Virus record (IMG/VR): IMGVR_UViG_3300024999_000065 | Span: 1-64,000 of that record | DNA length: 64,000 nt | Strand: one strand, 5' to 3' | Source: a virus | Shown here: positions 655-19,314 of the stretch, one piece after another | Layout of the letters: each line of letters opens with the position of its first letter | Numbering within the stretch: position 1 is the stretch's first letter | Position numbers and translations under genes: made by a program | Notes under the pieces: generated by a model | Told to the model about the DNA's origin: nothing | The model's input: only the letters and a program-made list of their open reading frames with translations | The model's database searches: none

Positions 655-1095
655 TTAATATTCTATTAATAATTCTGTACGTGGACGTTCTTTGTCATAA
701 TCACCTCTAATAACTAATTCTTTTACATGAGTAAAATCATCATCTTTTAATAATCCACTTTTAACTAAACCATCTCCGATGAATTTGATCGTGTAATTAT
801 CAGCGTCCCTACGTTGCTTAGTTTTGAAATAATATGTTGCAATAATTCTACATTGAGAAATATTAGCATTAGTTAAATTATTTTCTTGAACTAGCCAAAT
901 TACAAATTCACACCATGCTTGTTTAACTGAATTTGCTTTTAGACGTACCATAACCGACCATTGGTTAAGTGACGGTGCAATAGGGGAGTCAATTGGAAAT
1001 TTACGTCTTTTAGGATATTTTTTAAAATAAAAGTCTTTATACTTATCTAACACATTATTATCTATAACTAATTTAATTTCTGGTATATTAATCAC
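655..1095 (-). CDS. rusA: RusA-family Holliday junction resolvase-like endonuclease
   Basis: RRDADNYxxK...DGL...DDD motif typical of RusA; 146 aa. Confidence 0.7.
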   Translation of the reverse strand: MINIPEIKLVIDNNVLDKYKDFYFKKYPKRRKFPIDSPIAPSLNQWSVMVRLKANSVKQAWCEFVIWLVQENNLTNANISQCRIIATYYFKTKQRRDADNYTIKFIGDGLVKSGLLKDDDFTHVKELVIRGDYDKERPRTELLIEY

Positions 1096-1149: not shown

Positions 1150-1178
1150 TTGACAAATCACTATCAATTATATATACT
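1150..1178 (+). promoter_or_regulatory. sigmaA-type promoter driving the CRISPR-repeat-like RNA
   Basis: TTGACA(1150-55)-17 bp-TATACT(1173-78). Confidence 0.75.
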
Positions 1179-1196
1179 AATACTTAATATCAGCAG

Positions 1197-1226
1197 GTTG
1201 TACTACTTCTCATAGGGAATTGAAAT
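1197..1226 (+). CRISPR. solitary CRISPR-repeat-like unit 1 (30 nt, GTTGTACTACTTCTCATAGGGAATTGAAAT); degenerate copy at about 1278-1307
   Basis: 30-nt GTT...ATTGAAAT architecture of Firmicute type I-B/III repeats; TACTTCyCATAGrGA shared with the degenerate copy. Confidence 0.55.
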
Positions 1227-1327
1227 ATCATCACATTAAACTATAAACACAATAATATTAACAAACATTTCAATCAACCTGCGATACTTCCCATAGAGAT
1301 TCTCAAAACTAAATAAAAGACTCTGCT

Positions 1328-1364
1328 AATTAAAATATCTTCCCGATAACAAGGGGATTGAAAC
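1328..1364 (+). CRISPR. solitary CRISPR-repeat-like unit 2 (about 37 nt, ...TCCCGATAACAAGGGGATTGAAAC)
   Basis: TCCC/GGGG hairpin immediately followed by the 8-nt ATTGAAAC handle, as in Cas6-processed repeats. Confidence 0.6.
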
Positions 1365-1478
1365 GAATTTTATTCATTTAAATTCTTTTAAAAAGATATT
1401 TTAATATTAAATAGCAGAGTTTTTTATTTGCTAAATGTTTCAGTTACAGTTATAATCCAATTAGAAAGGACAAGTATT

Positions 1479-1775
1479 ATGTCTAATAAATCTAATAACA
1501 TCTCCGACACTAACAATCTTAAACAATGCCTACATTGTGAAAAATCATTCGCTTCAATAATAACCAAACAAAAATATTGTTGTACTAAATGTAGAGATAT
1601 CATGAAACAAAGAAAATATAGATTACAAAGAAAATTAGAGGGTAGGTGTCCTCAATGTGGAAAAATGATGGATTATCCTGTTAGTAGACATAGAACGAAA
1701 GATAAAATTAGTTATTGTAGTAAGTGTAGAAAATATTTTAAAGAACATAGAGAGAATAAAGGAAATAAATGTTGA
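1479..1775 (+). CDS. small basic Zn-finger protein (several CxxC pairs)
   Basis: ATG 1479 with AAAGGA SD; own promoter TTGCTA(1428)-17-TATAAT(1451); CLHC, CCTKC, CPQC, CSKC. Confidence 0.65.
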   Translation: MSNKSNNISDTNNLKQCLHCEKSFASIITKQKYCCTKCRDIMKQRKYRLQRKLEGRCPQCGKMMDYPVSRHRTKDKISYCSKCRKYFKEHRENKGNKC

Positions 1776-5135: not shown

Positions 5136-6440
5136 TTAGATTTGATACCACACAGAATCATAGACCATCACGCATTGTTGAGTTGTATCGTAAACCATCT
5201 CTCCACCAGATAATCCAGTTAATGCATTTCTTTCAGTTGACGTTAAGTTAGGTAATTTAAAACAATTATCTACTACAAATTTATTATTTATAGTATCGGT
5301 ATGAGCAACCAATGCAACACCATCATTTTTATACAAACCAAAAGAATTTGTACTATCAGTCGATGGTTTTATTTTATTAGCAATTACTACATTGTTGGTT
5401 TTATCAACATCTAATATTACTGTTACACCATCGGCATTATATTCTGGAAGATGGTCATAAATACCATTGTGGCCTGCGGTAAGACCTGTTAATCCAGAAT
5501 GGGTAGTAGTTGTACTAGGTGTATAAGTTGTTGCCCATGCACTATCTATTTGTACGGCATTTTGTGATCCCTTCAATATAATTATTCTACCAATAAGCAT
5601 AGCATTTGTTGATAAAGTTGATGGGGCGTTAGGAGGTTGTGCTGTTTTAGCTTGATTTAAGTCATAATCACCTGTACCTAATAATATAATAATATTTTCT
5701 GCATTAATTCCCATTCCTCTATATATCCAATTGACAGCATAATTTCCATCAGTAAGTGTTGTTAATCCTGTCCCTGTATTATATTGTGAATTATTGTAAG
5801 CAGTAACTACTGAACTAACCCAATCTCCATTAACATCTGTAACTACTTGTTCACAATGATTTGTAACTGAATCAACTTGAATTCTTGAATTTCTATATGA
5901 ACCTTGCCATACTGCACCAGGAGATATAATTATTTTTCTCCCTGTATCTTCGCTTAAATTTAATCCTGATACTCTTTCAAATCTACGTGTTTCCATATCT
6001 CTGCGAAGTATTTTATTGCTTAAACCAAGCCCTGGTTCATCCCAATCAAGAATATCAACATTTGTATCACCTGATCTACTACAAGTATAAACAACTACAT
6101 TATTTGAAAAATTTACAGTTGATAAGTCTGTAGTAACCGAATATTGGGGAGTGCCAGAATTATAATTTGCAACTATATATGAAGTTATTTGATCTGGTAT
6201 ACTTAATGTGACTCCTGCAATTGTATGTTCACTTACTTCACCAGAATAATTTGCTGTATGAAAAAATCTATATTCACCAGTTGCATCAATTGTTACTGTT
6301 CCACCAGCGTTATATGTAATTGTTGGTTTTATTACTGTACCAGAACCAATTAATAAACCTGAACCTGTTGGACTAACAAATGATGCACCTTGTGAGGCTA
6401 ATTCTCTTGCAATTAAATCTACTGTATTATTTAAAGGCAT
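5136..6440 (-). CDS. tail fibre/virion accessory protein
   Basis: 434 aa T/G/N-rich; C-terminal LPNLTSTERNAL...GEMVYDT motif seen in fibre proteins. Confidence 0.55.
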   Translation of the reverse strand: MPLNNTVDLIARELASQGASFVSPTGSGLLIGSGTVIKPTITYNAGGTVTIDATGEYRFFHTANYSGEVSEHTIAGVTLSIPDQITSYIVANYNSGTPQYSVTTDLSTVNFSNNVVVYTCSRSGDTNVDILDWDEPGLGLSNKILRRDMETRRFERVSGLNLSEDTGRKIIISPGAVWQGSYRNSRIQVDSVTNHCEQVVTDVNGDWVSSVVTAYNNSQYNTGTGLTTLTDGNYAVNWIYRGMGINAENIIILLGTGDYDLNQAKTAQPPNAPSTLSTNAMLIGRIIILKGSQNAVQIDSAWATTYTPSTTTTHSGLTGLTAGHNGIYDHLPEYNADGVTVILDVDKTNNVVIANKIKPSTDSTNSFGLYKNDGVALVAHTDTINNKFVVDNCFKLPNLTSTERNALTGLSGGEMVYDTTQQCVMVYDSVWYQI

Positions 6441-6538: not shown

Positions 6539-7738
6539 TTAATTTAATTCTTTCTCTAATATCTCTTCAATATTGTCAAAATCCCAATACCATATAATCA
6601 ATAAACTTATATTATTATTGTGTGCATATTCACATTTACGTCTATCATGTTCAATTTGTTTTTCAAAATCTTTTATAGATTTATGAAATATACCAGGTAT
6701 ATACCTTTCATGTTGCTCTCCATGATATTCAACAAGTAAATTATATTTTGGTATGTAAAAATCATATGATAGTTTTTTATTACCTACCCCAACAAGACCA
6801 TTAAATTTTTTCTGTGGAATTAAATATTTTTTATTATATTTATTTTTATCAATTAACTGTTCAAATTCTTGTTGTGATATTTTAATCCAATTATTATTAA
6901 TTAAAATTAAACTAATTTTCTTTTCTCCTTTTGATTCTGCACATTCTGGACATCCTGTGTGGGGTTTACTATTTCTACTAGAAATATATGTTTTCCATTC
7001 ATGCCCACACTCTTTACATTTCCACCAAACTTTTTTACCACTATTTGGACAATATTCTTCTGGTTTCTTTATATTCTTTTCATAATCCCATTCTTTACAT
7101 AATTCAGGATTAATAACTAATAAATTATAATCTTCGGAAGGTAATTGTCCTGAACAATAAGGGCATCCATTATTACTATTTGTTCTAGAATTTATACTAA
7201 CATACCATTCATGTTTATGATTTTTATTACATTGCCACCATACGTGTTTACCACTTCCATGTGTAACATCCCAAGGTGTTAAATCACCATTTTTTCTGGG
7301 ATGCCATTCAGTAGCAATATCTGGAAATTTAGTTGCTAAACAATTAGAAATACCTACTTGTCTACCAGCGCAATATCCACAACCATAACCATTTAAAATA
7401 CTCCTATATGATATATTAAGAAATTCTCCACATTCTTCTTTTAAACATTTCCATTTTAAATTTTCTTTTGCATTAATATATGTGTCACTTAATAATTCAA
7501 ACGGTTTATTATTTAACTTTAACCAAAGTTTTATATTTTGAATTGTATATGGATTAGATTTATGAAATTTCATTGGTTTATAACCTTGTTGTAAACTATT
7601 TGATTTAATAATATAATAATAACCATTATAATCTTTTAAAATTAATTTAGAACGATTATTTTTATATTCTTTACTAATTAATTCATAACCTAAATTTTCA
7701 ACAAATTCTTTGATTTCTTGATACGTACATTTTTTCAT
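6539..7738 (-). CDS. homing-endonuclease-like protein (zinc-ribbon repeats plus C-terminal Vsr/PD-(D/E)xK-like nuclease)
   Basis: repeated EW...KVWWKC..CGHEW...GCPxC; SKGE...YDFY...EYHGEQH...D..K motif. Confidence 0.7.
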   Translation of the reverse strand: MKKCTYQEIKEFVENLGYELISKEYKNNRSKLILKDYNGYYYIIKSNSLQQGYKPMKFHKSNPYTIQNIKLWLKLNNKPFELLSDTYINAKENLKWKCLKEECGEFLNISYRSILNGYGCGYCAGRQVGISNCLATKFPDIATEWHPRKNGDLTPWDVTHGSGKHVWWQCNKNHKHEWYVSINSRTNSNNGCPYCSGQLPSEDYNLLVINPELCKEWDYEKNIKKPEEYCPNSGKKVWWKCKECGHEWKTYISSRNSKPHTGCPECAESKGEKKISLILINNNWIKISQQEFEQLIDKNKYNKKYLIPQKKFNGLVGVGNKKLSYDFYIPKYNLLVEYHGEQHERYIPGIFHKSIKDFEKQIEHDRRKCEYAHNNNISLLIIWYWDFDNIEEILEKELN

Positions 7739-17934: not shown

Positions 17935-19314
17935 TTAATTTAAAATATTTTTAATTTTTTTATCAATTAAAGATTTATATGATTCATTTTTTTCTGTCCA
18001 ATATGGAATAATTAAATATTCATATCCCATTTTTCTTGCATATTCTTCTTTATATTTATCTTTATCTATTTGGTATTGTAGTTCTTCTTCTGGAGAAGTA
18101 TTATTTTTTATTGCAGATTGTATATGCCAACTATTAATTATATAATGTTGACACCCATGAACTTCTATTATTAAATGTTTATCATTTTTAAGTATTATTT
18201 CATTATCATACCTCAACTTAGACGATGATTTTATATTTTTAACTTTTAAAATATTTTTTGGACTAATAGTACAATTGTTTTCATGTAATATTTTATAATT
18301 TAATTCTTCTAAATATGTAACAGTCTTTAATTGTAGTTTAGAATAATTATTTTCAGTTACACAATAAGGACAATCAAATTCACAACTTTGAGAATTTCTT
18401 ATTTCTCTTAAATAATCATCATGTTTACCATCTTTACATTTCCAGTAAACTTGTTGACTACTTTGTGGTGCATACTCATATGGTGATTTATCATTTTTAT
18501 CTGACCATAAATCTAAAACTTCTGGATATAATGTTCCTAAAGAATCTAATGGATGAACTATTCCATGTAGGTTAATACAAAGTGGGCATCTTTTATTACT
18601 TGTGAAATCATTACAAGATGTTTTATAACTTCCATGATAGTCTTTTTCTTGGCACTTAATCCACACTTTTTTATTTTTTGAATTATTACCATAACTAATT
18701 TCCCAAGGATTTATATTTATATTTTTTCCCCAATCCCAGTATTTATCTAGAAAATCTTCACCTATATTATCTATACCCCATTGAGCAAATGAATTACATG
18801 CTTTACAATCTATATTTATTTGTTTACCACTTGTTAAGTCAGCGATACCATTTAATTCAGAATTATGTATATTTATATTACATTTAAACCAATATTTTTT
18901 CGAAGACTTACTTGGAACGTCATATGGTTTTAAATAATTTAATTCATAATCCCAACGATCTAATATATCTTGTCTATTATTATCTAAACACCATTTTTCA
19001 AAAGACTTGCTATTTTTCATCATAGTTGATTTAGTTTCATTATTTTCATCTCTAATTTTAATAGCACATTTATTACAATAATATTTTCCATCTTCATGAA
19101 CACATTTTTTATATACTTTCCATTCAATAGGTTTTAATTCATTCTTACAACCATCACATTTAATATTAACTACATAATGAGAAGAATATGGTAAATCTTC
19201 AACTTTTACTAAAAATTCATCACCATATTTAGTAAATGGATACCCTTTTTCTTCATAATATTTTTTATTAGCATGATGCCAACTTACTAAAACTTCTTTT
19301 GTTATTAGTCCCAT
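17935..19314 (-). CDS. homing-endonuclease-like protein (zinc ribbons plus C-terminal nuclease)
   Basis: YYEEKGY N-terminus, CxxC repeats, RYD...IEVHGCQHY...DKYK. Confidence 0.7.
   Translation of the reverse strand: MGLITKEVLVSWHHANKKYYEEKGYPFTKYGDEFLVKVEDLPYSSHYVVNIKCDGCKNELKPIEWKVYKKCVHEDGKYYCNKCAIKIRDENNETKSTMMKNSKSFEKWCLDNNRQDILDRWDYELNYLKPYDVPSKSSKKYWFKCNINIHNSELNGIADLTSGKQINIDCKACNSFAQWGIDNIGEDFLDKYWDWGKNININPWEISYGNNSKNKKVWIKCQEKDYHGSYKTSCNDFTSNKRCPLCINLHGIVHPLDSLGTLYPEVLDLWSDKNDKSPYEYAPQSSQQVYWKCKDGKHDDYLREIRNSQSCEFDCPYCVTENNYSKLQLKTVTYLEELNYKILHENNCTISPKNILKVKNIKSSSKLRYDNEIILKNDKHLIIEVHGCQHYIINSWHIQSAIKNNTSPEEELQYQIDKDKYKEEYARKMGYEYLIIPYWTEKNESYKSLIDKKIKNILN

Follow-up and report, generated by a model that had tools for sequence, protein, structure and literature searches.

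A phage RNA gene with two clamped CRISPR repeat-like modules, a candidate Racr-like decoy for two Cas6 specificities

Type I-B and related CRISPR systems are common in Clostridia and archaea, and a Cas6-type endoribonuclease recognizes the hairpin and the 8-nt handle of a CRISPR repeat. For solitary repeat units (SRUs), the basis of the RNA anti-CRISPRs (Racrs), the tool SRUFinder accepts a candidate if its identity to a known CRISPR repeat and its coverage of that repeat are both 90% or higher (Camara-Wilpert et al. 2023, PMC10651486); a type I-B Racr is not named in the main text of that paper, where "I-B" has 0 occurrences. Cracrs are defined by a spacer which matches a host cas or creT promoter, and the members of a single array are directed at variants of one type (Liu et al., bioRxiv 10.1101/2024.10.29.618823). 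On the host side, repeat clusters of 30 nt and of 37 nt co-exist in Clostridium thermocellum, where both repeat classes yield a AUUGAAAC tag, AUUGAAAU tags occurring too, and each Cas6b cuts only its own repeat class (Richter et al. 2012, PMC3479195). One host with both classes and class-specific Cas6b enzymes would thus provide a rationale for a decoy with two heads, such as may be encoded at the locus described here.

The stretch of DNA analysed, in the following called the window, comprises the first 64 kb of a virus entry of 92,135 bp in IMG/VR, a Clostridium-type jumbo phage, for which CheckV gave a completeness of about 53%. Its large terminase has a counterpart with 72.5% identity in the Clostridium phage c-st, the next-best named relatives are from Clostridium species, the portal and other genes resemble those of SPbeta-like phages, and the record has a GC content of 26%; the host of the phage is therefore probably a low-GC, Clostridium-like anaerobe. 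Among the structural genes of the window are large HNH/homing-endonuclease-like ORFs (6539-7738 and 17935-19314), one of them with a DUF4379 treble-clef zinc finger. An ORF of 434 aa (5136-6440) contains a Colicin D-like stretch which scored below threshold (18.3 bits, cut-off 25) and possibly represents a tail-associated or nuclease domain.

The RNA gene is situated on the plus strand, as are all of its parts given below. It begins with a sigma-70/sigmaA-type promoter, TTGACA-17-TATACT (1150-1178), which agrees with the consensus at 11 of 12 positions, and the predicted non-coding transcript of about 245 nt ends with a long terminator hairpin, reaching to approximately position 1428. The outer stem of this hairpin, ACTCTGCTA/TAGCAGAGT, forms together with a T-run from 1420 onwards an intrinsic terminator (1320-1428; stem search and folding) which encloses the second of the two modules of the RNA; in close relatives the two arms of this stem enclose only a simple terminator loop. 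A preliminary description of this DNA had proposed a stand-alone transcript with a sigmaA promoter, four long-range stems and a T-run. Promoter, T-run and all four stems are indeed in place, and the layout from promoter to terminator was found again, both being kept, in three relatives (L014, L016, L021). Equivalent promoters lie 5' of every homologous module (L014, L016, L021, L234, L233, L242, L255). The plus strand folds with -57.3 kcal/mol versus -28 for shuffled sequences (z = -8.3), none of the 200 shuffles being as good. The two modules share one architecture, consisting of a clamp (P1), a short hairpin (P2), an 8-nt handle ATTGAAA(T/C) and a second hairpin (P3). On both strands of the 92-kb record the motif GG[AG]ATTGAAA[CT] occurs twice, both times within the RNA; about 0.26 occurrences would be expected from base composition. 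Neither a Cas6 match (TIGR01877) nor a repeat array was found in the 92-kb record, and the earlier statement that cas genes are missing therefore holds for Cas6, the sole cas family scanned. Megablast and blastn searches with the RNA region revealed no relevant match among phage and plasmid records, and a motif search in the full text of the literature returned unrelated primers only.

Module 1 (1191-1283; 93 nt) is composed of P1, P2, the handle, a variable region and P1', the returning arm of the clamp, and is matched over its full length by the covariance model R1 with 94.2 bits. The 5' arm of P1, GCAGGTTG (1193-1200), shares 4 nt with the start of unit 1 and pairs with the 3' arm, CAACCTGC (1275-1282), according to stem search and fold. 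Unit 1 (1197-1226), a 30-nt mimic of a type I-B-like repeat as judged by template fit, array comparison and Rfam, contains the hairpin TCTC-ATA-GGGA (1208-1218) and the 8-nt handle ATTGAAAT (1219-1226), and a cut by Cas6 is predicted between 1218 and 1219. There follows a variable, spacer-like stretch (1227-1266), in which the window and its relatives differ and where the relatives have the P3 hairpin, and then the complement of the handle, ATTTCAAT (1267-1274), whose pairing with ATTGAAAT at 1219-1226 is specific for the window. A degenerate copy of the repeat, designated PsiR, with a decayed handle, occupies positions 1283-1309, with 87% identity between 1204-1218 and 1285-1299. Both the 30-nt unit and the degenerate copy had been pointed out before and are present. 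The copy is offset from unit 1 by an irregular 81 nt, the stretch between them measuring 51 nt; one full unit and one degenerate copy do not make up a tandem array of the 30-nt type I-B class with unique spacers.

The likeness of unit 1 to real repeats was assessed at several levels. In Rfam, the CRISPR-DR families DR2, DR38, DR10, DR32 and DR54 scored 13.9-21.1 bits, below gathering thresholds of 37-48, though the alignments span whole models with exact boundaries of the units; DR2 and DR38 cover unit 1 from end to end. A loosened form of unit 1, GTT-N9-YCY-N3-RGGAATTGAAAY, to which unit 1 as its origin has 0 mismatches, was used as a template for scanning 401 evenly drawn genomes of the class Clostridia. 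Large arrays with a period of about 66 nt were recovered in dozens of the 401 genomes, with near zero for the reversed control; an example of their repeats is GTTTTTAGCCTACCTATAAGGAATTGAAAC. One such array is flanked by genes for Cas6, Cas8b, Cas7/Csh2, Cas5b and Cas3, and on its other side by Cas4 and Cas1b, and is on this account of type I-B. In genome G043, two fragments of IS110-family transposases (L111:13115-14372) lie between type I-B adaptation genes and an array of 83 repeats.

Common to unit 1 and the 30-nt class are the length, the start GTT (GTTG in full), the place of the 3-bp stem and 3-nt loop at positions 13-21 and the 3' end GGAATTGAAA(C/T), so that unit 1 resembles members of a real repeat class, the 30-nt type I-B repeats. 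The nearest array repeats found are identical to it at 20-22 of 30 positions. Where real repeats have the stem CCT/AGG, unit 1 has CTC/GGG and its relatives have CCC/GGG, with GGAATTGAAAC kept; the pairing is thus maintained by compensatory change. Full unit 1 with three Ns had no match in GTDB genomes, and its 3' 20-mer, searched in the 185,579 species genomes of GTDB, revealed no array and 10 single chance matches. An exact scan for both units in IMG/VR found none.

More information was obtained from the relatives. Close relatives (L003/L021, L014, L016) keep the promoter, unit 1, its partner CAACCTGC and a simple terminator; they are without the degenerate copy, unit 2 and the zinc-ribbon ORF which follows the RNA in the window. 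The design with two units was found only in the window phage, three close relatives carrying module 1 alone. Five additional phage lineages have the clamped module, again preceded by a promoter, and their P1 arms differ and nevertheless stay complementary; in every lineage the modules are 89-96 nt long, with a TTGACA promoter upstream and P3 as second hairpin. Taking GCAGGTTG/CAACCTGC of the window (record of 26% GC), L014, L016 and L021 as reference, the arms GCAGATTG/CAATCTGC of L234 (26% GC) show a compensatory change from G-C to A-U, those of L233 (42% GC), AGCGTCCACA/TGTGGACGCT, are unrelated in sequence and paired, and L242 and L255 (29-33% GC) possess unrelated clamps of 13 bp around the canonical core CCTATGAGGAATTGAAAC. 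The latter two lineages have the same layout, followed 3' of the clamp by a degenerate repeat (PsiR) and a terminator, and their canonical repeat sequence is identical to real arrays over 27 nt. Invariant across all lineages are the Cas6-type hairpin and GGAATTGAAAC, while P1 and P3 change freely. P1 pairs were read for each sequence by itself, a gap in the L233 row shifting the P1 columns of the MAFFT alignment. Clamps of 10-13 bp were better than nearly all shuffles, and the 8-bp arm of the window alone was marginal, with a p of about 0.06. Model R1, which was built from six members, four of them near-identical, recovered L255 with 31.5 bits and L242 with 24.4 bits, both over the full length. 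It would appear from these comparisons of sequences that the structure of the clamped module is under selection.

The pairing of the handle behaves differently. In the relatives ATTGAAAC faces ATTTAAAT with two mismatches, or the pairing is absent, so that the stem between handle and anti-handle is peculiar to the window. The suggestion in the preliminary description that an anti-repeat pairing gates processing did not find support, because it is the outer clamp P1 that is conserved, and not the pairing of the handle. A second unit with a ATTTAAAT handle in the relatives was also considered, and was dropped, there being no supporting Rfam match.

Other arrangements of repeat-like units were encountered in phage contigs. 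In an unrelated contig of 42% GC (L233:640-870), a truncated fragment of a canonical type I-B repeat, TTAGCCTACCTATGAGGGAT, abuts the 5' clamp arm of the module, and fragment and module share one promoter, before a GC-rich terminator; the fragment may represent either another head that has decayed or a remnant of the process by which modules of this kind originate. In a 250-kb phage contig (L235:520-660), two different solitary units ending in GGAATTGAAAC are located about 83 nt apart in a tRNA gene cluster; they have no clamp and fold no better than shuffles (z = -1.2). Four further loci (L277, L290, L289, L246) contain an unclamped repeat of the same type I-B class, a spacer-like stretch of about 30-75 nt, a degenerate repeat and a terminator, and are candidates for mini-arrays or crRNA-like regulators.

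Module 2 (1323-1417; 95 nt), nested in the terminator stem, is matched by R1 over its full length with 23.7 bits, a weak match (E = 6e-4 within 401 nt, 0.63 within 430 kb), and is besides L255 and L242 the sole match in 430 kb outside the training set. It is on the strength of this full-length match that the RNA of the window is regarded as a tandem of two like modules, and both possess the marks of the family, i.e., a length of 89-96 nt, a P1 of 8-13 bp, P2 with handle, P3 and a promoter. The fold of module 2 has a z of -7.9 against shuffles, and its stem ATTAAAATATCTT/AAGATATTTTAAT is formed by 1329-1341 and 1393-1405. The repeat-like unit 2 comprises 37 nt (1328-1364), with a hairpin of CCC (1342-1344), GATAACAA and GGG (1353-1355), and the handle ATTGAAAC (1357-1364); the Cas6 cut is predicted between 1356 and 1357. 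A second unit, unrelated to the first and ending at 1364, had been claimed and is there. The three best Rfam matches in the 1.2-kb region, CRISPR-DR32, DR10 and DR54, all below threshold, cover exactly 1328-1364, and the unit was in addition compared with arrays.

For the latter purpose the pattern CTTCCC-N7-9-GGGGATTGAAAC was scanned in metagenomes. Among the matches listed are many true arrays, with a period of 73-77 nt and at least 52 copies in the largest. The closest repeats among the matches listed, of 36-37 nt, agree with unit 2 at 23 of 26 positions of its 3' part and at 27 of 37 overall; the array contigs among these matches are from soil and have 54-64% GC, unlike the expected AT-rich host. 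The cas genes beside the listed arrays, mostly absent on short contigs, are one RT-Cas1 and one Cas1: a reverse transcriptase-Cas1 fusion adjoins an array of 28 copies of the 36-37-nt class resembling unit 2 (L192:3-1688), and Cas1 adjoins another one among the matches listed. RT-Cas1 points to type III. Arrays resembling unit 2 were found neither in the 401 sampled Clostridia nor in the five genomes which hold 30-nt arrays, and a 23-mer of unit 2 had no match in the metagenomes. The earlier view that both units are mimics of repeats can thus be upheld in part. Similarity to real repeats does exist, in the proportions given above for unit 1 and for the 3' part of unit 2, and the units resemble Cas6-type repeats of 30 nt and of 36-37 nt; neither of them is a close copy.

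Phage c-st contains arrays at record positions of about 20.1 kb and 130.3 kb (L022:20100-20290 and L027:350-650), in agreement with the arrays of 5 and 2 spacers which Skarin et al. are said to have reported in 2011. As a source they were rejected, their 28-29-nt repeat GTATTAATTGAACTATGTTAGTTATAAA being unrelated to units 1 and 2, and the element being absent from that phage.

The surroundings of the RNA gene indicate an insert. Upstream lies a divergent gene for a RusA-like resolvase (655-1095, minus strand; phrog_34, phrog_1682), with synteny extending to L003/L021 and L016. The RNA is missing from RusA loci that are more distant. A tie between the RNA and the RusA-like gene was considered and rejected, since among 60 loci with RusA homologues the RNA was present only in the known close relative. 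Directly after the terminator of the RNA, an ORF of 98 aa with a double CxxC zinc ribbon (1479-1775, plus strand) has its own promoter (1428-1456). It had no match in Pfam or PHROG, and its homologue clusters number 3. This ORF is missing beside the RNA in the close relatives, so that it may have been acquired at the same time as unit 2; an anti-defence or regulator function of the gene is possible. At another locus (L060:1990-2500, minus strand) both the RNA and the zinc-ribbon ORF are missing between the same flanks, namely the start of the RusA-like gene and the terminator of the converging operon; the RNA is thus an accessory insert, and the region a variable insertion site.

From these data the RNA is best read as a Racr-like decoy for two specificities of Cas6/Cascade, a reading for and against which the chances appear evenly balanced. 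It is favoured by the invariance of that part which Cas6b could recognize, by helices that change and yet remain paired, and by the fact that the RNA is an accessory insert equipped with a promoter and a terminator of its own. A further point concerns the variant hairpin CCC-(G/A)TA-GGG, which occurs in IMG/VR in 8 contigs, all with solitary copies and none with an array; the canonical core is represented there by about 18 arrays and 36 solitary copies. That a variant is confined to solitary copies in phages is more readily understood if the unit is a decoy shaped by evolution than if it is a repeat captured recently. What has been observed are the sequence features, the conservation of the structure and the likeness to real repeats, which themselves occur in a type I-B context. 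Against a decoy may be held that no near-identical array repeat was found for unit 1 or unit 2, and that a degenerate second repeat, as in the window, L242 and L255, would fit a guide-producing mini-array too. The sub-threshold Rfam scores, the weak match of R1 to module 2 and, for unit 2, the GC-rich contigs of its nearest arrays among the matches listed and the lack of such arrays in the 401 Clostridia also speak against it.

The decoy could be imagined to work as follows; transcription, binding of Cas6 and inhibition are the steps which we infer. The RNA would be transcribed from its own strong promoter, and each module would display a Cas6-type hairpin and handle inside a loop closed by P1, module 1 imitating the 30-nt type I-B class of Clostridia and module 2 a class of 36-37 nt. 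Cas6 enzymes of the host would bind the RNA and perhaps cut it 8 nt before the end of each unit, whereupon Cas5/Cas7 may bind the handle. Subunits for crRNA processing and effector subunits would in this way be tied up in useless complexes, and fewer working crRNAs would be formed. The clamp would serve as a scaffold for folding and stability, so that the hairpin, very short as it is, would be sure to fold properly where no array surrounds it. A more far-reaching version, which is tentative and rather doubtful, holds that a specialized "Cas6 trap" of about 90 nt, P1-P2-P3, with a GC-strengthened hairpin that no host array uses, has evolved in phages whose hosts are low-GC anaerobes, and that this scaffold can be duplicated and re-headed, one transcript disabling two Cas6 specificities (30-nt and 37-nt). 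In that case the RNA would be a modular and evolvable platform of RNA anti-CRISPRs, not a copied host repeat.

The degenerate repeats downstream keep a different explanation in contention, namely, that the RNA is a guide-producing element, either a mini-array or a crRNA-like regulatory RNA similar to Cracr or CreA. Cas6 would then cut unit 1 and the degenerate repeat, and the RNA made up of handle and spacer-like stretch would be loaded into Cascade or a type III complex, for repression of host cas or toxin promoters or for attack on competing phages. The order of repeat, 51-nt stretch and degenerate repeat in the window is compatible with this, as is the degenerate repeat by which the clamp is followed in L242 and in L255; unclamped units of repeat, spacer and degenerate repeat, with terminators, are numerous in IMG/VR (e.g., L277, L289, L246), and the 5' part of the spacer-like stretch differs between phages. 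Viral Cracr RNAs, including type I-B, have moreover been described (bioRxiv 10.1101/2024.10.29.618823). The stretch, however, measures 51-72 nt as compared to about 36 in real arrays, a fold with P3 and P1' is predicted for it, and what its 3' part conserves is pairing, not a target; in addition, L014, L016, L021, L234 and L233 have no downstream repeat. In a Cracr, 9 or more PAM-proximal bp of the spacer-like part would be complementary to the promoter of cas or creT in the host. The first 21-mer of the stretch, a weak probe when used alone, had no protospacer in IMG/VR, nor in the window. On the whole the production of guides seems unlikely, if still worth serious consideration.

Less probable again is a structured small RNA of the phage with a role outside CRISPR, as scaffold or partner of an RNA-binding protein or as antisense RNA, whose likeness to repeats would be incidental or ancestral. 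Stable small RNAs typically have a clamp and hairpins, the same genome has a gene for a Ro60/TROVE-like RNA-binding protein (phrog_850), and the identity to real repeats is moderate; yet the sole invariant element is precisely the Cas6-type hairpin with GGAATTGAAAC, two lineages carry the canonical repeat of hosts with 27 nt identical to arrays, and Rfam produced no match to Y-RNA or another family. That the RNA is an inert, decaying relic of a host array, acquired by recombination or array integration, is very improbable, since despite the degenerate copies and the truncated canonical fragment beside the L233 module, dedicated promoters and terminators were kept in six lineages, the stems of P1 and P2 show compensatory changes, and the variant hairpin exists only as solitary copies in phages.

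Should the decoy reading prove correct, the first structured design rules for an RNA inhibitor directed at Cas6 of type I-B and related systems would become available, and it would be explained how one small RNA could cover a host with several Cas6 enzymes. A compact laboratory tool for switching off type I-B and related systems would result as well. The P1 clamp provides a clean handle for testing, as its pairing can be disrupted and then restored by mutation. RNA anti-CRISPRs have been catalogued by their near-identity to host repeats, and the clamped family demonstrates what such a filter misses, i.e., diverged repeat mimics in a conserved scaffold, one of them with two different heads.

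The trick of a decoy is known in outline; the structured, two-headed form is new. With the SRUs and Racrs (Camara-Wilpert et al. 2023, PMC10651486) the RNA shares the intergenic, promoter-proximal situation and a single repeat-like hairpin with handle, in a phage and without cas genes. In the window and in all homologues the unit is intergenic, lies just 3' of the promoter and has the orientation of a crRNA; it is also solitary in the 92-kb record, which has neither array nor Cas6 match, the flanks being the RusA-like gene and the zinc-ribbon ORF. Identities of 67-73% (20-22/30 for unit 1; 27/37 for unit 2, the closest among the matches listed) are below the limit of SRUFinder. In the portion of the supplementary SRU data of PMC10651486 considered here, the unit of L242 (IMGVR_UViG_3300025012_000035) is contained as a type I-B SRU, with 27 nt, 100% identity and 90% coverage; contigs of the family of the window itself do not appear in that portion, which fits their falling below the 90% identity filter. 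Unlike the Racrs of PMC10651486, the units of the window are held in a P1-P2-P3 scaffold of about 90 nt, with two length classes on one transcript. The Cracr arrays (Liu et al., bioRxiv 10.1101/2024.10.29.618823) are likewise repeat-derived RNAs of phages, sometimes multiplexed, type I-B included, and with degenerate repeats; the RNA of the window is distinguished from them by a long, structured spacer-like part and by units from different repeat classes. With type I-B repeats of Clostridia (PMC3479195) it has in common the 30/37-nt classes, the small hairpin and the 8-nt 5' tag AUUGAAAC or AUUGAAAU. In contrast to those repeats, the phage units stand outside arrays, their stem is strengthened to CCC/GGG, and the 5' third, rather than being conserved as a repeat, co-varies with its partner in the clamp (L234).
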